From the NCBI GenBank assembly GCA_944358235.1, contig CALVQL010000003.1:1-37505 (forward strand): a stretch of DNA of 37,505 bases, read 5' to 3'. The DNA comes from an uncultured Bacilli bacterium. Its GTDB lineage: Bacteria > Bacillota_I > Bacilli_A > RF39 > UBA660. Under the pieces are notes generated by a model. The model was not told where the DNA came from, made no database searches, and saw nothing but the letters and a program-made list of their open reading frames with translations. How positions within the stretch are numbered: position 1 is the first letter of the stretch; every line of letters starts with the position of its first letter. Below are positions 3,971-18,964 of the stretch, in pieces. A program made the position numbers and the translations under genes.

Positions 3971-4954
3971 ATGAAGAGGGATGGGTTTATAGCATCAAGC
4001 ATTCTATATTCGTTTTTTTTGGTGTTTATTACTCTCTTTATAGCATTAATCATAAATTATATTCACAATCAGGTTTTAATCAACACTTTAGATGAAGCTT
4101 CTTGGGAAATGCTTTTGGGGATTAACAATACAAAGATTTCCGATCTTGAAGTAGGGGAGCATATTAAATTTGCTATGCAACCAGGACAACAAATTATGAA
4201 TGAAAATGCGACATGGACAGTAGCTTATATCGAAGAAAACGGGGATGACTTGACATATTATTTTTTAAGTGATCTTACAGCTCAGAATCTTGATGTATAT
4301 TATAAGTTGACGACGGATCGTATTATAAAATGGCACCCGATAACGATTGACGTTTACAACGATCTTCAAAGTCAAAATGCATATAATGCAGCGGTGTTAT
4401 ATCCTGGGGTAACGGTTACGGTGCCGACAACTAGCATTATGGAAAAAGTTCGTGCTCAAGATTTGAGCGGTAACGTATTTGATGCAATTTATGGTGTCGA
4501 CGGCGATTATATCGTCTATGTCGACAATGATACAGCAGCATATACAAAAGATCGTTATTATGAAGTTCGCACATATCGATTTGACCAGACAAATCAATCT
4601 ATATTAAATAGCTATTGTAATGGTACTTTCAACGGAGATATCGCTAGCTATAACGCTAATAATACTTTTGGGTATATGAATGTCGTAAGAGAGTCGGTAA
4701 AAAACGAAAAATATGTCGATTACTGCTCATATGCAAGCCCTGTTGCTTATACGCATTCAGCGAGCGATAATGTCGTTGACTATGACGAAAATGCAACAGA
4801 AGGTGACTTAGTAGTAACTACATATACATCACTTTACACGTTACGATTAATGGCTAGTGTAACAGTAAACAGAAACGATACTGATACATATCTTGCCGGT
4901 GGTAAGGGAACATCTTTGGATCCATATCTATTGACGAATGGAGTGAAGCAATAA
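3971..4954 (+). CDS. Type IV minor pilin-like protein lacking Glu5 (GspK/PilX/ComGG-like class)
   Basis: MKRDG|FIASSILYSFFLVFITLFIALII: basic leader, Gly-Phe cleavage site, hydrophobic helix, no E at +5. Large extracellular domain ending in GKGTSLDPY. Confidence 0.65.
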   Translation: MKRDGFIASSILYSFFLVFITLFIALIINYIHNQVLINTLDEASWEMLLGINNTKISDLEVGEHIKFAMQPGQQIMNENATWTVAYIEENGDDLTYYFLSDLTAQNLDVYYKLTTDRIIKWHPITIDVYNDLQSQNAYNAAVLYPGVTVTVPTTSIMEKVRAQDLSGNVFDAIYGVDGDYIVYVDNDTAAYTKDRYYEVRTYRFDQTNQSILNSYCNGTFNGDIASYNANNTFGYMNVVRESVKNEKYVDYCSYASPVAYTHSASDNVVDYDENATEGDLVVTTYTSLYTLRLMASVTVNRNDTDTYLAGGKGTSLDPYLLTNGVKQ

Positions 4955-5502
4955 TGAGAAAGAAAAATGGTTTTGTTTTTATGGAAACAGTGGTCGTTGT
5001 TGGAGTTCTATCGATAACTCTATTGATGCTATTTGGTTCGTATTCATTCTTGCTTCGCAAATCGCGTGAACGAAATACTTATGATACAACGGAGATGATT
5101 TATAAGACTTATTACGTTAAAGAAATAATCGACAGTTATAAACCAACCGGAAATAACTCGATAGGTATTGAATATTTCATCGATTCCCACCCGAGTTTCT
5201 GCTCACAAATGGGAAGCTTTAATAGCTATGTTTGTGATCTTAGTAGCAATCCTGCTGATTTACTACAGGTTAAAATGGCTTTTGAAGTCGAGAAAATCTA
5301 TTATTTAAATCCACGTGAAATTTTGACTTCGTCTCAAAGTGATGCTTGGTTAAGCATGTTCGATGCAACGACTATTGATTATATTCATAATCTTGGCGAA
5401 AGTATTGACTATAATGTAATGGTCGTAAAATACAAGAAGACGTATAATAAGACGGATGGATCTTATGAAGTCATTCACTCTTCGATGGAGGTGACATCAT
5501 AA
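4954..5502 (+). CDS. Type IV prepilin-like (minor pilin) protein
   Basis: MRKKNG|FVFMETVVVVGVLSITLLMLF class III signal with E5. One Cys pair. TAATG overlap with the upstream gene. Confidence 0.8.
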   Translation: MRKKNGFVFMETVVVVGVLSITLLMLFGSYSFLLRKSRERNTYDTTEMIYKTYYVKEIIDSYKPTGNNSIGIEYFIDSHPSFCSQMGSFNSYVCDLSSNPADLLQVKMAFEVEKIYYLNPREILTSSQSDAWLSMFDATTIDYIHNLGESIDYNVMVVKYKKTYNKTDGSYEVIHSSMEVTS

Positions 5503-6254
5503 TGAAGAAAAATAGTGGTATGACGATTATCGAGATTATTTTGAGTATTTGTATAATCGCAATCGTCTTAGTACTCTTATTTACAATGCTCATCCAAGTT
5601 CGTCATCAAGATGATAACAATAATATTCAATCTAATTTTATAATTAATCAATCTACTTTTATTAAAGCCGTTGAAGAGGATATTGTCAATTATGGTGTCA
5701 AATCGATCGGTTCTTGTACTTTAGCAGACGCTAATATCTCGACATCGGTTGTAACTGGATATGAAGATGACTATAAATGTGTTCGTATTGAATATGCTGC
5801 AGATTATATACAAGATAAAGTCGGTTATTTGATTATCTATAATTACTATACCAAATACGATGTTATTGATGGGGAGTATCAGGGATATGAACCGTCTTGG
5901 ATGGTTCAATATGTTCGTGGATCTTACGGTGTATGTAACAATGGCCGTCCACAGAGAACTTCTTGGGTTAACGCAACTTCTTTGATGCGTGAGTTACCTA
6001 GTGAAGTCGATTTGAGTGAAACGCCTTATGTATTATATACTGCTATGGATTCAAATCGTTATAATGCCGCATCAGTAGTTATCCCAATTGTCAATCTTGA
6101 AGGGGAACACTATGATATAAATCTTTCCTTCACTTTCCAAGGTAATAGTAATTTTACTTGCGGTGAAAAAGAGGGAAGTCTTGAATGTATTTGTACTAGT
6201 TCTGATGCCCTATGTGCACCAACAAAGAATAATTATTCCGATGCCTGCACATAA
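5502..6254 (+). CDS. Type IV prepilin-like (minor pilin) protein with Cys-rich C-terminus
   Basis: MKKNSG|MTIIEIILSICIIAIVLVLLF class III signal with E5. TAATG overlap. Confidence 0.8.
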   Translation: MKKNSGMTIIEIILSICIIAIVLVLLFTMLIQVRHQDDNNNIQSNFIINQSTFIKAVEEDIVNYGVKSIGSCTLADANISTSVVTGYEDDYKCVRIEYAADYIQDKVGYLIIYNYYTKYDVIDGEYQGYEPSWMVQYVRGSYGVCNNGRPQRTSWVNATSLMRELPSEVDLSETPYVLYTAMDSNRYNAASVVIPIVNLEGEHYDINLSFTFQGNSNFTCGEKEGSLECICTSSDALCAPTKNNYSDACT

Positions 6255-7061
6255 AAGACGACTTAGATAAAAATATCTATAATTAATTTTAGTATCCTTA
6301 AGGATACTTTTTATTTGGCTATGAATACTGATTCCACCAAAAGATATAAAAATGATAGCGAGCATGTCATGAATAAATGTCGAACTAATCGTTTTTATAA
6401 CAGTCAAACCATTTGTAACTTCCAAAATACCGGTTATTATTATTCGTAAAAAATGGTTATGAACGGGAATTAGATTTGCAAGAATTGTAAATATAGTAAT
6501 CGTTCCAAGAATCATCAATAAAAGATCTATATTCTTATCGATTGACTTACTGAGTCTGAAATCGATATCGATTTCTTTAAACGGTATATTGCTTGGACAT
6601 AGACTTTTTCTCATGATCAATCCGACTAGTAAATTACTTATCCAAATAATGAATAGTACTCTTTTGCCCGCTAAAGTGATAATCAGGAGGGGATTGAAGA
6701 AGACTGTCATTGAAAGTGTTTTGACGATATCGTCCTCGTTTACAAGCCCCTTCTTATAAAGTGTATACAAATTTATTGCATTAGTCGGCGTTCCAGAAAG
6801 AAAACTGAGCAATAATACATAGGCAGAATACTCGCTTACTCGAAATAGCCGTTTTATTATTTTGCCTAAATGACGAGATATATCGTTGATTATTCCAGAA
6901 GACAGCACAAGATCATTGATGATGAATGTTGGAAATAAAACAGGAAACAAATTTTGACACCAAATATTAAGAGCGGTGATACCACTAGTAACAACAATGT
7001 CTTTTTTTATAAAAAAAAGGACAAAAAAGCCAATAATTATCAATTTTCTCATATTTTTCAT
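6210..7061 (-). CDS. ylbJ: YlbJ-like sporulation integral membrane protein (start may be 7052)
   Basis: ALNIWCQNLFPVLFPTFII, SFLSGTP, GILEVTNG and ISFGGISIHSQI motifs. Divergent from ylbL, as in Bacillus. Confidence 0.8.
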   Translation of the reverse strand: MKNMRKLIIIGFFVLFFIKKDIVVTSGITALNIWCQNLFPVLFPTFIINDLVLSSGIINDISRHLGKIIKRLFRVSEYSAYVLLLSFLSGTPTNAINLYTLYKKGLVNEDDIVKTLSMTVFFNPLLIITLAGKRVLFIIWISNLLVGLIMRKSLCPSNIPFKEIDIDFRLSKSIDKNIDLLLMILGTITIFTILANLIPVHNHFLRIIITGILEVTNGLTVIKTISSTFIHDMLAIIFISFGGISIHSQIKSILKDTKINYRYFYLSRLLCAGIGIIILCWCT

Positions 7062-13179: not shown

Positions 13180-13541
13180 TATATGTAATAATCGATACGT
13201 TAACATATACCTTCACAGGTATATATCTTTGTACTTTTCTTTTTTTCTTCCATTTCATGAATATAAAAGAGATGACGCTAGCGTTAGTAGTTTTATATCT
13301 TTTAAACGAAGACGTCTTCCTCTGTTTTTTATTTCTAGTGATGTATTTGATCGATAAAATAATATTCAAGTATATCAACTATAATCTGCTAACTGCTTTA
13401 TCGATGTTTACTTTTTATTATTTAATCATCAATACTATTGATATTTCGTATTTTGTAAACCTAATTTTAGTTATTATTCTATACTGTCAAAAATATAATG
13501 TTTTAGGTGATCATCATGCGATTAAAAGAATCTCTTTTTAG
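13176..13541 (+). CDS. Short multi-TM protein, probably a divergent MreD
   Basis: Fully hydrophobic 121 aa, ATGA-coupled to mreC. Assignment is positional only. Confidence 0.5.
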   Translation: MIYVIIDTLTYTFTGIYLCTFLFFFHFMNIKEMTLALVVLYLLNEDVFLCFLFLVMYLIDKIIFKYINYNLLTALSMFTFYYLIINTIDISYFVNLILVIILYCQKYNVLGDHHAIKRISF

Positions 13542-14046
13542 TTTCTTTATAAGAACATTATTAGCTTTAATAATGTTCTTTTCTATATCAATTTATCTAA
13601 GTGACGATGAGAATTATTTTGCATCTAAGGATTTTTTCTTTTCATCAAACATCGATTTTTCATATATAAAAAGTAAACTGAACGTTTTGATGGGAGAGTA
13701 TTTAGGTATTGGTGGTGAGCAGTTTGTTACTAGTGAGAAATTAAACTATAAAGATGTCATCAAAGTTGATGATAGCTATTATTTTACAACGGATTATAAT
13801 TATGTATTAAATAATCTTGCTAGTGGAGTAGTTATATTTATTGGTGAGCAAAATAAGCTTGGAAGTACTATTATTATCAGCAGTGATGACGGGACGAATT
13901 ATTGGTATTCTAACATTGAAAACATCAATGTAAATCTTTATGATTACATTGAAAAGGGAGTTATTATTGGAAGTACAATCGGTAATAGTTTTTATTTAAC
14001 TCTCGAAAAAAATGGAGAGTACTTAAATTATGAAGATTATATTTAA
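13516..14046 (+). CDS. spoIVFA: SpoIVFA-like protein (TM plus degenerate M23/LytM domain)
   Basis: SGVVIFIG...LGSTIII...YWYSNIENINVNLYDYIEKG, with no HxH zinc motif. AGGTGA RBS before ATG 13516. Precedes spoIVFB. Confidence 0.75.
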   Translation: MRLKESLFSFFIRTLLALIMFFSISIYLSDDENYFASKDFFFSSNIDFSYIKSKLNVLMGEYLGIGGEQFVTSEKLNYKDVIKVDDSYYFTTDYNYVLNNLASGVVIFIGEQNKLGSTIIISSDDGTNYWYSNIENINVNLYDYIEKGVIIGSTIGNSFYLTLEKNGEYLNYEDYI

Positions 14047-14755
14047 AGTTAGTATATTCACGTATATCTATGCTGTATTGATGATCTTTATGGGATACAT
14101 TAACGTTCTAATATTGACTGCAGTCGTTTTGTTAATTCATGAACTAGGACATATCCTATTTATCAAATTCTTTGGTTATAAAATTAAAAGTATCTCTCTT
14201 TACCCATGTGGTGCTATTATTGATACTGATATAACTATTAATGTTCCTTCATCAAAGCTTTTCTTTATCAGCATCGCAGGAGTTATGATGCAAATATTGT
14301 TAGAAATCGTCACCTTCAACTGGAACGGTTATAATACTGAATTATTACATCGAATTAACCATTTCGTCATATTATTTAATTTGTTTCCTATTTATCCTTT
14401 GGACGGGTATAAAATTATTCTTTCGATATTAGAAAACCTCGGCAAGTACAAATTGGTGGTTAAAATAACTTATGGGATTAGCTTTACCGCTCTTTTAATT
14501 CTATTTTTCTTGAGTAAAAATATCTTGATGTTTGTTCTTCTGTACGTTTTTAATATAAATTATATCTTAATACATCCATACTATTATCATAAATTCTTAT
14601 TAGAACGTTTTCTTTATCCTTACCGGTGGAAACATTCTAAAAAGACAAAATGCTTAAAAGATATGTATAAAACTAGAAATAATTATATAAGATGTGGTAA
14701 TATATATATCGAAGAGGAAGAGATGCTAAAGCGAGTTTTTGGTAATGTTTATTGA
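14030..14755 (+). CDS. spoIVFB: SpoIVFB-like M50 intramembrane metalloprotease (pro-sigma-K processing)
   Basis: HELGH, LYPCGA and FNLFPIYPLDG motifs, plus KFLLERF. Upstream of rplU, as in Bacillus. Confidence 0.8.
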   Translation: MKIIFKVSIFTYIYAVLMIFMGYINVLILTAVVLLIHELGHILFIKFFGYKIKSISLYPCGAIIDTDITINVPSSKLFFISIAGVMMQILLEIVTFNWNGYNTELLHRINHFVILFNLFPIYPLDGYKIILSILENLGKYKLVVKITYGISFTALLILFFLSKNILMFVLLYVFNINYILIHPYYYHKFLLERFLYPYRWKHSKKTKCLKDMYKTRNNYIRCGNIYIEEEEMLKRVFGNVY

Positions 14756-14884: not shown

Positions 14885-15184
14885 ATGAAAGCAATATTCG
14901 AAACTGGTGGAAAACAATACTATGTTCAAGAAGGCGACGTTATCTACGTTGAAAAACTAAATGCTGAAGTTGGAAGTACTATCGACTTTACAGAAGTTTT
15001 ATGCGTCGGAGATAAAACTGGAACACCTTATGTTTCTGGTGCAAAGGTAACATGTGAAGTTGAAAAGCACGGCAAGAACAAAAAAATCGTCGTTTTCAAG
15101 TATAAACCAAAGAAGAAATATCGTAATACCAGAGGACATAGACAGCCATATACTAAGCTTGTTGTTAAAAAGATTGTTGGTTAA
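14885..15184 (+). CDS. rplU: 50S ribosomal protein L21
   Basis: [10 protein letters not shown] and GHRQPYT motifs. RBS AAGGAGG. Confidence 0.98.
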
Positions 15185-15186
15185 TT

Positions 15187-15483
15187 ATGATTACAGTAAA
15201 GAAAAAAGATAATGTCATAACGATTAGTGGACATGCCGGGTATGAAAAAACAGGTGAAGATATCGTATGTGCTAGTGTTAGTTCAATCATGTACACGACA
15301 CTTAATGCGATTTTACGCTTTTCCAATGACGCTATTTCCTATGAGGATGATAAGAAGAAAGTTACGATAGTTAACAAGAAAGGCGATAATATCACAAATA
15401 CATTGCTTTCCAATATGATGTCGTTATTTTTGGAATTGGCGATGCAATACCCAAAAAATATTAAAATTGAAAGTGAGGAATAG
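15187..15483 (+). CDS. prp: Ribosomal-processing cysteine protease Prp (YsxB)
   Basis: SGHAGY...DIVCASVS catalytic His/Cys. Lies between rplU and rpmA. Confidence 0.93.
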   Translation: MITVKKKDNVITISGHAGYEKTGEDIVCASVSSIMYTTLNAILRFSNDAISYEDDKKKVTIVNKKGDNITNTLLSNMMSLFLELAMQYPKNIKIESEE

Positions 15484-15486
15484 AGA

Positions 15487-15792
15487 ATGATTAATCCATA
15501 TGATTTCATCAATATGATTTCTTTAGATATTCAACGTTTCGCACATAAAAAAGGACAGTCAAGTACTCAAAATGGTCGTGATAGTGAAGGTCGTAGACTT
15601 GGAGCAAAAGCTGCTGATGGTCAGGTAATAAATGCTGGAACGATTATTTATCGTCAGAGAGGAACGAAGATTTACCCAGGAAAGAATGTCGGAATGGGAA
15701 AAGATCATACGTTATATGCTTTGATTAGAGGAACTGTAAAATATGAGCGTTGTGGTCGAAACAAGAAAAAAGTAAGTGTTTACGAAGTGTAA
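15487..15792 (+). CDS. rpmA: 50S ribosomal protein L27 with cleavable N-terminal extension
   Basis: LDIQRF|[21 protein letters not shown]. Confidence 0.97.
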
Positions 15793-15805
15793 ACACTCTT
15801 TTTTT
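15775..15805 (+). terminator. Terminator of rplU-prp-rpmA
   Basis: AGTGTTTAC-gaagt-GTAAACACT-c-T7. Confidence 0.8.
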
Positions 15806-15848
15806 GCATAAAAAAGCCCGATTTTTATAAAATATATTAGGTGATAAG

Positions 15849-16205
15849 ATGGAGGAAAAGAAAGAAAAATTTAAAACTTTTGTCAGTCATCATCCGGAAT
15901 TAGTGTCATTTATCAGAAGTAAAGAGATGACGTGGCAGGATTTTTATGAGATATATGATATATACGGAGAAGATGATTCGGCATGGAATCAGTATTTCTC
16001 CGCTGGCGAGTTAGAAAGCGATACAAATACTAAAGATAAAGTTTCTGAGCTTACGAGTATATTCAAAAATGTAAACATGGATAGCATTCAAAGACATGTG
16101 AATAATGCTCAAAAGGCGATTAATATTATTCAAGAACTTACCAAAAAAAGTCCCGAAGTGGTGAGTAAAACTTCCAGACCGATTACTAAGTTTTACGGAG
16201 ATTAA
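15849..16205 (+). CDS. ylbD: YlbD-family spore coat protein
   Basis: FKTFVSHHPEL, TWQDFYEIYDIYGEDDSAW, MDSIQRHV. Confidence 0.8.
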   Translation: MEEKKEKFKTFVSHHPELVSFIRSKEMTWQDFYEIYDIYGEDDSAWNQYFSAGELESDTNTKDKVSELTSIFKNVNMDSIQRHVNNAQKAINIIQELTKKSPEVVSKTSRPITKFYGD

Positions 16206-16426
16206 TGGAACTATCTATTGTATTAGAAATCGAAAAAGATGCTAAATTACACGAATATCTTATGCATCATTCCTACTGGTATCGCCTTTTAAATCGTGAT
16301 CAAAAGAACTTTGAAGCATTAAAAAAAGAATACAAGACCTTTAAAAGAAATGCCAACTTTGACAAAGTAAACAACGTAGTTGAGAACTTGGAACTCGTAA
16401 GTAATATTATGAAAATTGTAGAATAG
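16205..16426 (+). CDS. ylbE: YlbE-like protein
   Basis: YLMHHSYWYRLLNR motif. TAATG-coupled to ylbD. Confidence 0.75.
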   Translation: MELSIVLEIEKDAKLHEYLMHHSYWYRLLNRDQKNFEALKKEYKTFKRNANFDKVNNVVENLELVSNIMKIVE

Positions 16427-16447
16427 GAGAAAAACTTCTCTTTTTTT
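16425..16447 (+). terminator. Terminator after ylbDE
   Basis: GAGAA-aaac-TTCTC plus T7. Confidence 0.6.
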
Positions 16448-16448
16448 A

Positions 16449-16477
16449 TTGAAAAAATGAGAATCTTAACTTATAAT
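16449..16477 (+). promoter_or_regulatory. Sigma-A promoter of the large pilin gene
   Basis: TTGAAA-N17-TATAAT. Confidence 0.7.
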
Positions 16478-16507
16478 ATTTATAGAATAGAAAGATAGGT
16501 TTGAATT

Positions 16508-18292
16508 ATGAGAAAGAAAGATAAAGGTTTTACTTTAGTTGAGTTGCTGGCGGTTATTGTTATTCTGGCACTAATCCTCATTATAGCAATACCATCAGTT
16601 CTGTCAGCTATGCGATCTGCCCAAAAGGAATCATTTTATCTTTATGCTCAAAGTCTGCAGTCAAAGGCTCTGGCTCAGTACACGCAGGATCTGGAGCACA
16701 ACAAAGATAATACCGATTGTGTCGTATACGATATTGGTGAAGATTTGGGTATATCGAACACAGGGGATTATGAAGGTTGGGTAAAGGTAAATCGGACACC
16801 TGTTGAATCCGGAAACAAAAATGTAACTGTTTCGCTTAGCAACAGTAGTGGACTACAGTATGTAAAATACTGTGTTGCCGATGGCTCTTCTTGTACACCA
16901 GACACTTCGTTCTATGTCACTGAAGGCGCAACTTCAACAGAGATAACGAAGTCATTACAAGAAGGAGAAGTTCTATGTGCCAACTATCAATATCTCGATG
17001 GTGACTCATTGAAGACGGCGAGCAATACTTGCAAGACTTATGCTTCTGGAGATGCTGTTGTTGATACATATGAATATAATGTAGAAATCACGCTAAAGGA
17101 CGATGCCTACGCAGTTGAAAATGTCGCATTTAACGACGATATGTCGATGGATGAGTTCTATGCAGCGATTTCTGAATTCAACGAGAATCACAAAAATGAC
17201 GCTAATAAATTAGCAATATCAGCTCCGTCATGTAGTGCTACTGGTGATGATGTCAAAGGAACGACGACGACTAGAACCACACAAGTAACGACTACTACTA
17301 CAGCTGATCGTGATACTACACGTGTAACAACGACGACGACGACTCGTAATCAAACAGGCGTTACAACGACGACCACTACAACAAGACGTACTGAACAAGT
17401 AACGACGACGACGACAAGTGATAGACCGACTGAAAACGTCTCGACGACGACGACAACAGAACGTCCTACGACATCAGATACGACGACTACGATAAATATT
17501 GAAGATCGCTCTTTACTACTTGCAAGCTTAAGTGTTAGTGGTTATGATGATGTTTTGGCATTTAGTCCATATAAATTCTATTACGATCTCAGAGTACCTA
17601 ATTCGGTAACGAGCTTAAATGTGACGGCAGTTGTCGAAGAGCCTGAAACTAGTGAGGTATATATTACTGGGGCCGAAGCGTTAAATGTTGGAACCAACCC
17701 AGTGGTAGCAACAGTATTTAATACGATAACTGGCGAAAGATCGTACTACCGTATAATGGTAACGCGTCTTGATGAATCAGGAAATGTTCCGAATAATTCA
17801 GGGGGAAATGGCAACGGAGGAAATGGTAATAGCGAATCTGGTAAACCAGATCCGACGTTAGCAGAATCAAACGCATCATTGAGTTATTTAGGGGTTTCTG
17901 GATACTCAATTGACTTCGATCCAGAAGTTTATGAATATACATTGACGACGAGAGGCGAGGATCATTTATTCATCAATTATGAGACTGCATCAGAGACAGC
18001 TCATGTTGCATTAACTGGAAACGAAGAACTTCAAAATGATGATCAAATAGTGTTATTCGTTCAAAGTGAAAACGGCTTCTATAACAAGACGTATACAATC
18101 ACTGTAAAATTCGCCGAAGAAGAATCAGCGACGACGAAAGTGCTTCGTGGATTCGCGGTAGGATTAGGAGTATTACTATTAATCATTTTGACGATTGTCG
18201 CAATCAACAAGCGTAAAAAGGTCGTTTTAGATGATGATGACAAAAAAGATGAAAAAGAACAACAGAACAATCATCCGGAAGATATCGTTTAG
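16508..18292 (+). CDS. Large type IV pilin-like protein: pilin domain with Cys-rich insert, Thr-rich stalk, two cadherin-like beta-sandwich domains, C-terminal TM anchor
   Basis: MRKKDKG|FTLVELLAVIVILALILIIAIP. Poly-Thr repeats. LASLSVSGY...FSPYKFYY and LSYLGVSGY..DFDPEVYEY...KTYTITV repeats. Ends GFAVGLGVLLLIILTIVAINKRKK. Confidence 0.85.
   Translation: MRKKDKGFTLVELLAVIVILALILIIAIPSVLSAMRSAQKESFYLYAQSLQSKALAQYTQDLEHNKDNTDCVVYDIGEDLGISNTGDYEGWVKVNRTPVESGNKNVTVSLSNSSGLQYVKYCVADGSSCTPDTSFYVTEGATSTEITKSLQEGEVLCANYQYLDGDSLKTASNTCKTYASGDAVVDTYEYNVEITLKDDAYAVENVAFNDDMSMDEFYAAISEFNENHKNDANKLAISAPSCSATGDDVKGTTTTRTTQVTTTTTADRDTTRVTTTTTTRNQTGVTTTTTTTRRTEQVTTTTTSDRPTENVSTTTTTERPTTSDTTTTINIEDRSLLLASLSVSGYDDVLAFSPYKFYYDLRVPNSVTSLNVTAVVEEPETSEVYITGAEALNVGTNPVVATVFNTITGERSYYRIMVTRLDESGNVPNNSGGNGNGGNGNSESGKPDPTLAESNASLSYLGVSGYSIDFDPEVYEYTLTTRGEDHLFINYETASETAHVALTGNEELQNDDQIVLFVQSENGFYNKTYTITVKFAEEESATTKVLRGFAVGLGVLLLIILTIVAINKRKKVVLDDDDKKDEKEQQNNHPEDIV
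17261..17491 (+). repeat. Degenerate tandem Thr-rich repeats (about 12-14 aa, V-T5-7-x-R) built from (ACG)n/(ACN)n runs
   Basis: VTTTTTADRDTTR / VTTTTTTRNQTG / VTTTTTTTRRTEQ / VTTTTTSDRPTEN / VSTTTTTERPTTSD. Confidence 0.9.
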
Positions 18293-18307
18293 ATATCTTC
18301 TTGGATG
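18272..18307 (+). other. Long inverted repeat over the stop codon of the large pilin gene, with no U tract
   Basis: CATCC-g-GAAGATATC-gttta-GATATCTTC-tt-GGATG. Confidence 0.6.
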
Positions 18308-18326
18308 TAAAATACTCTAAAAGGTA

Positions 18327-18355
18327 TTGACTAAATAATAAGAAAAATATATAAT
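18327..18355 (+). promoter_or_regulatory. Near-consensus sigma-A promoter of the 174-aa pilin gene
   Basis: TTGACT-N17-TATAAT, then RBS AAAGAGGA. Confidence 0.75.
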
Positions 18356-18382
18356 TTAAGTATAATAGAAAGAGGAATTTGT

Positions 18383-18907
18383 ATGAAGAAGAAAAATGGT
18401 TTTACATTAGTGGAGTTACTAGCTGTTATCGTTGTATTAGCTATAATAATGATTATAGCAATACCGACTGTATTGGATGTTATGAATAATGCAAGAAAGA
18501 GTTCGTTTGTGTTATATGCTGAAAAGGTTATTAACGCAGTACAGACTCAATACTTATATGATGCTGGTTTAGGTTCAATTGCTGGAGCTGGCTACTATGT
18601 ATATGATATTACATCTGATTTGGAGCTAACATCAACTGGAGATTATAGGGGTTATGTGGTAGTAAATGCCATTGACGTTGATAATGTTGAATACATCTTA
18701 TTCCTATACGATAACAACTACATGATTACGAATTACAATGTAACTCAAAATGGTATGCCAACAACTGACAATGGTTCAATTGCTGCATACGATGCATCAT
18801 TCATTAGTAGTCAAGCAGCTTCTTCTGCTGTAGCTTGCCAAGCAGCAGCTGGTAGCCAAGCAACTTGCTACAATAGAAACGGTTATATAATCGTAAGTGC
18901 TAATTAG
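18383..18907 (+). CDS. Type IV pilin, candidate major pilin
   Basis: MKKKNG|FTLVELLAVIVVLAIIMIIAIP. C-terminal Cys pair (ACQ...ATCY). Has its own promoter and terminator. Confidence 0.88.
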   Translation: MKKKNGFTLVELLAVIVVLAIIMIIAIPTVLDVMNNARKSSFVLYAEKVINAVQTQYLYDAGLGSIAGAGYYVYDITSDLELTSTGDYRGYVVVNAIDVDNVEYILFLYDNNYMITNYNVTQNGMPTTDNGSIAAYDASFISSQAASSAVACQAAAGSQATCYNRNGYIIVSAN

Positions 18908-18936
18908 AAAAAACAACTATTATAGTTGTTTTTTTT
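18908..18936 (+). terminator. Terminator after the pilin gene (symmetric A/T tails)
   Basis: AAAAAACAACTA-tta-TAGTTGTTTTTTTT. Confidence 0.8.
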
Positions 18937-18964
18937 ATGCTATAATCTTTAATAGGTGGTTAAT

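Follow-up and report, generated by a model that had tools for sequence, protein, structure and literature searches.

The window analysed here is a stretch of 37,505 nucleotides from an uncultured Bacilli bacterium (GenBank assembly GCA_944358235.1, contig CALVQL010000003.1, positions 1 to 37,505, forward strand), and the subject of this study is the gene at positions 16508–18292. Its 594-residue product is very probably a real and conserved protein of the type IV pilin family that is anchored in the membrane at both ends. From the N- to the C-terminus it is composed of a prepilin signal, the alpha1 helix, a head with six cysteines, a Thr-rich stalk, two PF12733 beta-sandwiches, a hydrophobic helix and a KRKK cluster with an acidic tail. 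An earlier note on this DNA had described the same anatomy (class III signal, pilin domain, Thr stretch, two cadherin-like repeats, second transmembrane (TM) segment, KRKK, acidic tail), and every one of these parts was recovered in its place. They are distributed as follows.

16508–18292, + strand: candidate gene for a tethered modular type IV pilin (open reading frame (ORF) of 594 residues; Pfam and NCBIfam matches, conserved family)
16508–16528, + strand: leader peptide MRKKDKG, with Gly at position -1 of the prepilin cleavage site (sequence pattern)
16529–16699, + strand: mature N-terminus and alpha1 helix, residues 8–64, with F1, Glu5 and Pro22 (hydropathy, AlphaFold2)
16718–17242, + strand: head domain, residues 71–245, beta-rich, six conserved Cys, FN3-like insert at about 104–188 (AlphaFold2, predicted local distance difference test (pLDDT) > 90)
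17258–17497, + strand: Thr-rich stalk, residues 251–330 (composition; disorder in AlphaFold2)
17519–17767, + strand: cadherin-like beta-sandwich 1, residues 338–420 (PF12733; AlphaFold2 strands; Ig, cadherin and Rib-like structural matches)
17768–17863, + strand: Gly/Asn/Ser-rich linker, residues 421–452, ending in a conserved G-PDPTL-ESNA (AlphaFold2 pLDDT < 50 at 429–442)
17864–18118, + strand: cadherin-like beta-sandwich 2, residues 453–537 (second PF12733 stretch; AlphaFold2 strands 458–535)
18149–18208, + strand: predicted C-terminal TM segment, residues 548–567, preceded by a juxtamembrane TTKVLR (hydropathy 2.85; AlphaFold2 helix 541–570)
18209–18289, + strand: stop-transfer KRKK and acidic tail, residues 568–594, predicted cytoplasmic (sequence; disordered in AlphaFold2)

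The prepilin signal reads G|FTLVE and leads into alpha1-N, which is hydrophobic and forms the first membrane segment. Pfam placed N_methyl (PF07963) at residues 2–28 (31.5 bits against a cut-off of 21.2), and the NCBIfam prepilin domain TIGR02532 scored 25.4 bits against a cut-off of 16.3; no equivalog-level pilin model was reached in the NCBIfam scan. The Cadherin-like model PF12733 matched two stretches, the top one at residues 338–420 with 30.4 bits (cut-off 24.2). The Pfam search suggested in the earlier note thus returned N_methyl together with PF12733 twice, both above cut-off, and this combination makes the protein a modular pilin as defined in the main text of PMC8179133. All six cysteines (C71, C122, C129, C157, C175 and C242) lie N-terminal to residue 243. 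Residues 241–330 contain 46 threonines, and the disordered stalk measures 78 residues. When the protein was scanned for Kyte-Doolittle hydropathy in 19-residue windows, the threshold of 1.6 was exceeded at two places only, residues 4–21 (peak 3.38) and residues 541–573 (peak 2.85 for 548–566). The C-terminal helix is followed by NKRKK and then by the acidic stretch, the tail being 27 residues long. From its hydropathy, the positive-inside pattern and the helix modelled by AlphaFold2, this helix is predicted to be a TM segment. An amphipathic surface helix was also considered and was dropped, given the Kyte-Doolittle value of 2.85 and the basic cluster that accompanies the segment wherever it occurs in the family.

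The source is a fragmented assembly of metagenome type (90 contigs) in which low-complexity regions can mis-join, and this would speak for a chimera across the Thr-rich region or for a mis-called gene. At the DNA level, however, the Thr region holds just one weak tandem array (17442–17492, period 18, 2.6 copies); as it is hardly repetitive, repeat collapse is unlikely. The segment 16400–18950 is present in 18 public runs (at least half of the sampled words), and the 20 runs with matches come from 15 studies and are mostly chicken gut metagenomes. Contigs assembled in other studies cross the full gene without indel or joint: X5 record 10 (3329 nt) bridges 16425–18950 with 7 differences, X1 record 1 bridges 16400–18096, and X7 records 17 and 21 cover 16400–17673 and 17726–18950. 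A contig from a metatranscriptomic library (X9 record 23, 2388 nt) bridges 16513–18900 with 14 differences. Of 61 homologue clusters, with identities as low as 32%, 58 retain both ends and the same plan, and orthologues occupy the same chromosomal place in two other genomes. The mis-join at the Thr repeats about which the earlier note had warned is therefore absent. An assembly artefact, whose probability we set close to nil, is refuted by the contigs, the homologues, the synteny and the repeat content.

In order to evaluate conservation, near-length homologues were collected among 7999 scored candidates. This search gave 396 matches at E ≤ 0.001, of which the best 120 were listed. The family was defined as the first 61 matches, on the basis of a gap in E-value alone (6.2e-46, then 7e-27) and not of the TM segment. 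A C-terminal hydrophobic segment with basic residues is found in 58 of these 61 clusters. Of the three that lack it, P0046 lies on a contig of 1962 bases, P0047, which carries the label partial, on one of 1384, and P0061 on one of 2001. The motif G-F-T-L-[VIAM]-E, including Glu5, is present in 60 of 61, the exception being P0042. None of the 59 other N_methyl proteins among the matches listed, all of which have the prepilin motif, carries a second TM or C-terminal hydrophobic segment; many of these modular pilins are fused to DUF285 or to BspA-type leucine-rich repeat (LRR) domains. An exhaustive profile-free search of 50%-identity representatives returned 3867 proteins at E ≤ 0.001, of which 36 reached E ≤ 1e-30. 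Eleven of its representatives, which align to both ends of the query and whose termini had been seen beforehand, were added to give 72 family proteins.

Across this enlarged set the segment occurs in 69 of 72 proteins with a median length of 20 residues, and the next 10 residues contain at least 3 Lys plus Arg, with a median of 5. The tail after it has a median of 34 residues (range 11–99) and the T/S-rich span a median of 170 (range 0–405). Invariant or nearly invariant columns are G7, F8, T9, E12, P29 (mature Pro22) and the six cysteines, and P447, D448 and S454 of the linker region are invariant in the family alignment. Some members contain an extra domain, either an InlB B-repeat (PF09479) or a further cadherin-like domain. 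Source names include [quoted passage not shown] and [quoted passage not shown]; one JGI label of a family member joins a repeat family and the prepilin domain. The protein atlas match was one cluster of the family's own kind, with 83 members, N_methyl in 100% and Cadherin-like in 93% of them. The C-terminal helix that the earlier note had singled out is indeed strongly hydrophobic with basic residues next to it in 69 of 72 proteins, and the search it had proposed for relatives combining N_methyl with a C-terminal TM segment has brought them to light as a conserved family.

The combination is confined to this family in the material at hand. Among 326 fetched proteins with a prepilin motif and at least 150 residues, 70 have a C-terminal hydrophobic segment and all 70 belong to the family; four of these stand outside the list compiled for it (one short member and three cluster mates). 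Two of the 142 distinct complete prepilin-motif ORFs from loci without the family have a hydrophobic stretch close to the C-terminus, neither with a basic stop after it. In the order sample, 5 of 201 genomes gave a match at E ≤ 1e-20, and three of them (G000, G184 and G060) match both query ends. In the class-wide sample, where 3 candidates per genome were scored, one of 399 scored genomes matched at E ≤ 1e-30, namely the source genome G000 itself. No full family member was detected in the 80 loci fetched from a contig search with the family alignment (blastp with the C-terminal 264 residues), a search dominated by the generic pilin N-terminal pattern.

We then considered whether the C-terminus could be a sorting signal. 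No sortase-type motif (LPXTG-like pentapeptide) was found by regular expression in the 594 residues, in agreement with the earlier note, to which no LPxTG was visible. NCBIfam models of C-terminal sorting domains gave no match at E ≤ 1 with the full protein, and no LPXTG-type model matched the last 69 residues at E ≤ 10. These 69 residues matched related models below cut-off only (GG_III-CTERM, 18.4 bits against 22; Heimdall-CTERM, 13.8 against 24). Four sortase-family matches were found elsewhere in the genome. Known tripartite sorting signals finish within a few residues of the TM segment. The tail observed here is long and variable. This speaks for a stop-transfer anchor followed by a cytoplasmic tail and against a signal of the tripartite kind.

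Homologues that match in the C-terminal part only (about residues 453–588) have ordinary hydrophobic N-terminal signals and carry the cadherin-like sandwich, TM segment, basic residues and tail at their end; P0146, P0157, P0182, P0211, P0225 and P0239 are such Sec-type relatives. The genome itself encodes four more PF12733 ORFs, each with an internal TM segment followed by a low-complexity, predicted cytoplasmic tail of about 85–130 residues: C17 (~15088–16540), C36 (~5156–6713), C56 and C45. Two of them are cut by contig ends, and the two complete N-termini are Sec-type signals. Since Sec-type proteins with the same C-terminal module exist here and elsewhere, it looks as if the family arose when a pilin module was joined to a type I membrane anchor that was already resident and consists of two sandwiches, a TM segment and a tail. 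Of the four tails encoded by the other PF12733 ORFs of this genome, three end in short acidic/aromatic motifs, as do those of the Sec-type relatives P0162, P0185 and P0190, and such ends may represent a conserved cytoplasmic docking motif. The idea of a mechanosensor signalling through the cytoplasmic tail was dropped, the tails being of low complexity and not conserved.

AlphaFold2, run with a family alignment of 51 rows, produced a model with a mean pLDDT of 77.8. It predicts a helix at residues 10–64 (pLDDT ~90 in two models), a confident beta-rich head at 71–245, disorder at 253–328 (pLDDT < 50), sandwiches at 338–420 and 458–535 with a disordered linker (429–442) between them, a helix at 541–570 and a disordered tail. 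Modelled on its own, the head reached a mean pLDDT of 90.0. Profile comparison with solved pilins gave a sequence match over alpha1-N only, as with Streptococcus sanguinis PilE1 (8pfb_G, E 2e-7, residues 8–44). Foldseek returned no match at E ≤ 0.001 for the head alone, and tandem-sandwich matches only for the whole model. In VIA, a search independent of Foldseek, the top match of the head was the pseudopilin GspK (3ci0_K; Z 6.1, root-mean-square deviation (rmsd) 3.2, 92 aligned, model 32–224). FimA (Z 5.0, 113 aligned, 12–221), the Thermus competence pilin TT_C0855 (Z 4.9, 36–209) and EpsI (Z 4.8, 37–210) were matched as well; Z values of 4.8–6.1 are in the range that this search rates as middling. 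Most of the remaining rows were FN3 domains matching residues 104–188, and the pilin matches bracket this FN3-like insert. Our reading, a tentative one, is that the modelled head has the pilin fold and that, as in GspK, a further domain is inserted in it, here an FN3-like one. The best match of sandwich 2 was 8q2h_A (Z 8.0, rmsd 2.4, 81 aligned, model 453–537).

A small pilin gene lies just downstream of the large one, and the following features accompany the pair in the window.

18383–18907, + strand: partner small pilin, 174 residues, G|FTLVE (N_methyl match)
16449–16477, + strand: promoter-like site before the large pilin gene, TTGAAA, 17 nt spacer, TATAAT (11/12 consensus match only)
18327–18355, + strand: promoter-like site before the small pilin gene, TTGACT, 17 nt spacer, TATAAT (11/12 consensus match only)
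3971–6254, + strand: three consecutive minor-pilin-like genes of 327, 182 and 250 residues (prepilin-pattern N-termini; the first without Glu5)

The 174-residue protein is probably the major pilin of the filament, and the pilin module of the large gene appears to be its paralogue. Over mature alpha1 the two are identical at 22/30 and 32/55 positions, and the runner-up of the 8 other prepilins compared reaches 19/30 and 21/55. Pro22 is invariant in the alignments of both families. A complex prediction with the head (8–250) and the small pilin (7–174) scored 0.01 and is uninformative about binding. The order large pilin, small pilin, nfo and rnf-like gene is kept in G184 (same genus) and in G060 (another genus). 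The G184 orthologues are 56% (large) and 67% (small) identical, and G060 has a large form of 746 residues (39% over the best segment) and a small pilin at 61–62%. Among the genomes compared, small-pilin orthologues at 62–67% identity were confined to these two. G066 and G193, two other genomes of the genus of G060, have neither the large gene nor a close orthologue of the small pilin; their best small-pilin matches, 40–50% identical, lie inside larger ORFs. These very small genomes (1.3–1.4 Mb) show what looks like a lineage-wide expansion of surface proteins with the pilin module, with 25 matches each to the N-module of the small pilin, mostly in ORFs of 200–1000 residues. The pilin-module loci of sister genomes are L013, L014, L016, L017, L021–L025 and L110–L113. 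The small-pilin family gave 682 matches at E ≤ 1e-10, and the best 120 listed are 165–234 residues long and 45–99% identical. For 17 of the 61 large-pilin matches the longest contig is equal in size to that of a listed small-pilin match, which we took as a proxy for a shared contig. One small-pilin match (P0248, 99% identical) is on a public contig of 1,436,489 bases, that is, a nearly closed genome of the same organism or of a very close relative.

The pair stands among housekeeping genes. Upstream of it are genes for L21, an L27-associated protein, L27, YlbD and YlbE; downstream are those for Nfo, two Rnf-like proteins and a TM2-domain protein. AT-rich hairpins with T runs were seen by eye before 16449 and after 18907. 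The X9 contig from the RNA library coincides almost exactly with the two pilin genes, and DNA contigs continue beyond both ends, a hint that the pair is transcribed, perhaps as a unit, and that the large gene is probably transcribed. About 12 kb upstream of the pair, the minor-pilin-like trio gave weak ComGE/ComGF matches and N_methyl at E 0.004; judged from sequence, it is probably a priming or tip set of minor pilins of the same machinery, separate from the pilin pair. Just upstream of L21/L27, positions 13507–14755 (+ strand) encode a Peptidase_M23 protein and then a polytopic membrane ORF with a HELGH motif (by eye), an arrangement that we take to recall spoIVFA-spoIVFB of spore-formers.

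The source genome comprises 1.07 Mb in 90 contigs and is 85.6% complete, so that absences from it are not proof. Components of a pilus machine were found on contigs other than that of the pilin pair. A PilB/GspE-type ATPase at the end of C12 (C12:21003-23254) scores 474 bits to TIGR02533; the 750-residue ORF runs off the contig, the models end at about 532–535, and some 215 C-terminal residues as well as a short N-terminus are unmatched. On C7, a PilC-type platform protein (528-residue ORF with two PF00482 (T2SSF) domains) adjoins a PilD-type peptidase (PF01478). A second PF00437 ATPase, on C23 (L002:1195-2643), is best matched by VirB11/TadA models. A motif scan found seven prepilin-type ORFs in the genome and two more were recognised by eye in the window; among all of these, the large pilin alone has a second TM segment. 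A further large prepilin-type protein (C37:5526-7535, 669 residues, G|FTLIE) has no C-terminal TM segment.

Our preferred reading, held tentatively and at a little under an even chance, is that the pilin module joins the filament of the partner pilin and that the C-terminus stays in the membrane, where it leashes the filament or limits its growth. According to the positive-inside rule, the basic flanks of membrane segments face the cytoplasm. Basic residues precede alpha1-N in the leader and follow the second TM segment in the tail; both termini are therefore predicted to be cytoplasmic and the rest outside, and the protein would be inserted in this manner. The PilD-type peptidase of the genome would then remove the leader of 7 residues, and the PilB/PilC machine would draw alpha1-N, near-identical to that of the partner and endowed with Glu5 and Pro22, into the partner filament. 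The C-terminal TM segment would remain in the membrane, leaving the subunit on a leash made of the Thr-rich stalk, the linker and the two sandwiches. An extended chain covers ~0.35 nm per residue; the ~78 residues of the stalk could thus reach ~25–30 nm, to which the 32-residue linker and the sandwiches would add, and relatives with longer stalks would reach further. Such a distance, ~25–30 nm or more, is about the thickness of a Gram-positive envelope. Type IV subunits are added at the base of the filament with a rise of ~1 nm each. A subunit on such a leash would thus hold the fibre at the cell and halt extension a few tens of subunits after its incorporation, and a stalk that varies from 0 to 405 residues within the family is expected if it sets this distance. 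What leads us to the leash is the retention of Glu5 and Pro22, an alpha1 closest to that of the partner, the strict pairing of the genes and an extended stalk between head and anchor. A stronger version, in which a stop-and-anchor subunit limits growth to a few tens of nm and fixes the fibre, producing membrane-anchored, wall-spanning filaments of set length, is more doubtful. A role as a cap looks less likely, because Glu5 is retained and because the window holds a separate minor-pilin-like trio, one member of which is without Glu5.

Several points weigh against incorporation into a filament. Cleavage by PilD, polymerisation and persistence of the anchor are all deduced from sequence, and conservation of Glu5 and alpha1-N could be explained by peptidase recognition alone. 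The head matches solved pilins at middling Z values of 4.8–6.1, Foldseek giving nothing at E ≤ 0.001. A long leash is not universal, as the T/S-rich span is 0 by the chosen criterion in P0055, P0129 and P0130, and the cytoplasmic tail shows little conservation across the family and a low complexity. The kin are few (three genomes in two genera), too few for the co-occurrence with the small pilin to count as statistical proof. Only part of the machinery is documented: in this 85.6%-complete genome there is no PF00437 ATPase that best matches PilT-family models and no PilM_2 (PF11104) match. Finally, RNA-library contigs can hold DNA, and one contig does not establish a single transcript. In a rival reading, which we consider somewhat unlikely, the protein is never polymerised. 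The prepilin N-terminus, cleaved or not, would serve as a membrane segment only, and the protein, anchored at both ends, could be a surface loop, or it could act within the membrane on the pilus machinery or the pilin pool, as a partner or a regulator. Nothing would hinder extraction into a filament more simply than a C-terminal TM segment, and other proteins, in this genome and beyond it, use the cadherin-like module with its TM segment and tail as an ordinary type I anchor. The lineage also joins the same N-module to many surface domains (25 matches per sister genome; DUF285 and BspA-type LRR), so that the module may be a general device for export and anchoring, and the similarity of the head to solved pilins is, as said, middling. 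However, Glu5 and Pro22, kept in 60 of 61 clusters, and an alpha1 closest to the partner's are features of filament assembly, the long extended stalk would have no obvious use if both ends stayed in the membrane, and the pairing with the small pilin is strict.

Alternatively, the TM segment could be temporary and removed by a protease, in which case the mature modular pilin would display its two cadherin-like domains, most likely near the tip. A [ST]-T-K-x-L-[RK] motif is common directly before the TM segment and could be a recognition site, and the modular pilins described in the main text of PMC8179133 have free C-terminal modules. The resemblance to GG_III-CTERM (18.4 bits against 22, hence below cut-off) and the four sortase-family matches in the genome point in the same direction. 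We consider such release improbable, as there is no LPXTG-like motif in the protein, no curated sorting-domain model reaches its cut-off, the tail of 11–99 residues (median 34) after the TM segment differs from that of tripartite signals, and no dedicated protease gene stands beside the pair in the three genomes.

SpaB of Corynebacterium diphtheriae is the basal pilin of sortase-assembled pili and is linked covalently to the cell wall by sortase. The analogy with the present protein is one of logic only: in both, incorporation of a special subunit would terminate polymerisation and secure the fibre at the envelope, the chemistry and the machinery being unrelated. GspK is devoid of Glu5 and caps the pseudopilus. 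The protein would resemble GspK (3ci0 chain K), its best structural match for the head, in having a pilin fold with an inserted domain, here FN3-like at ~104–188; the match is middling with 10% identity; it differs in keeping Glu5 and in its C-terminal extension and anchor, which GspK does not have. With type I cadherin-like surface proteins of Bacillota (C17, C36, P0146, P0182, P0211 and P0225) it shares the same C-terminus of PF12733, TM segment and basic tail, but these uncharacterised proteins start with Sec-type signals and possess neither prepilin signal nor pilin head.

Modular pilins comprise more than 1,200 proteins in 264 architectures and have been modelled at the filament tip (PMC8179133, main text). 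Like PilB (vWA) and PilC (lectin) of S. sanguinis in that text, the present protein unites, in a monoderm host, a class III N-terminal pilin module and a domain without specific ties to pili, and it is probably a minor subunit beside a small major pilin. Unlike them, with their short linker and free C-terminal module at the tip, it has a 78-residue stalk and, further on, a TM segment with a tail in the cytoplasm. The words "transmembrane" and "cadherin" do not occur in the main text of PMC8179133, whose Dataset S1 may list an architecture with N_methyl and a cadherin-like domain; being based on InterPro, these architectures would presumably leave a TM segment unrecorded. In the accessible text of a 2023 review of type 4 filament assembly (PMC10191384), "transmembrane" is used for the platform protein and in one reference title, and "tethered" is absent. 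S-layer-like proteins of archaeal pilus loci, as presented in the accessible text of PMC4858521, are comparable in that they are Cys-containing surface proteins with a C-terminal TM segment and a genetic link to pilins; they are separate, non-pilin proteins, whereas here pilin and anchor are parts of one bacterial polypeptide. No description of a pilin with a C-terminal TM segment was found in the literature searched, supplementary datasets lying outside its reach, and the statement in the earlier note, whose author knew of no characterised pilin with this architecture, holds within that literature. We rate the architecture as a variant of modular type IV pilins that is uncharacterised in these sources.

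In current filament models, alpha1-N is the sole membrane segment of a pilin and exits the bilayer on polymerisation, and a conserved second anchor that looks permanent does not fit them. A pilin with such an anchor of its own would surprise a specialist of type IV pili, and it opens a way to test how monoderms retain their filaments and control their length. It may also give a handle on the use of pilin modules as in-membrane parts in these bacteria. If true, a stop-and-anchor subunit would do for type IV filaments what the basal pilin does for sortase-assembled ones, in a genome where no retraction ATPase was found, and it would act as a genetically encoded ruler, with a stalk of ~0–400 residues across the family. 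The hosts are uncultured Bacilli with small genomes, and the stretch studied here is found mostly in chicken gut metagenomes. Because fusions of the pilin module appear to have expanded in these lineages (25 matches in a sister genome of 1.3 Mb), pilin-based surface display may be central to their colonisation.

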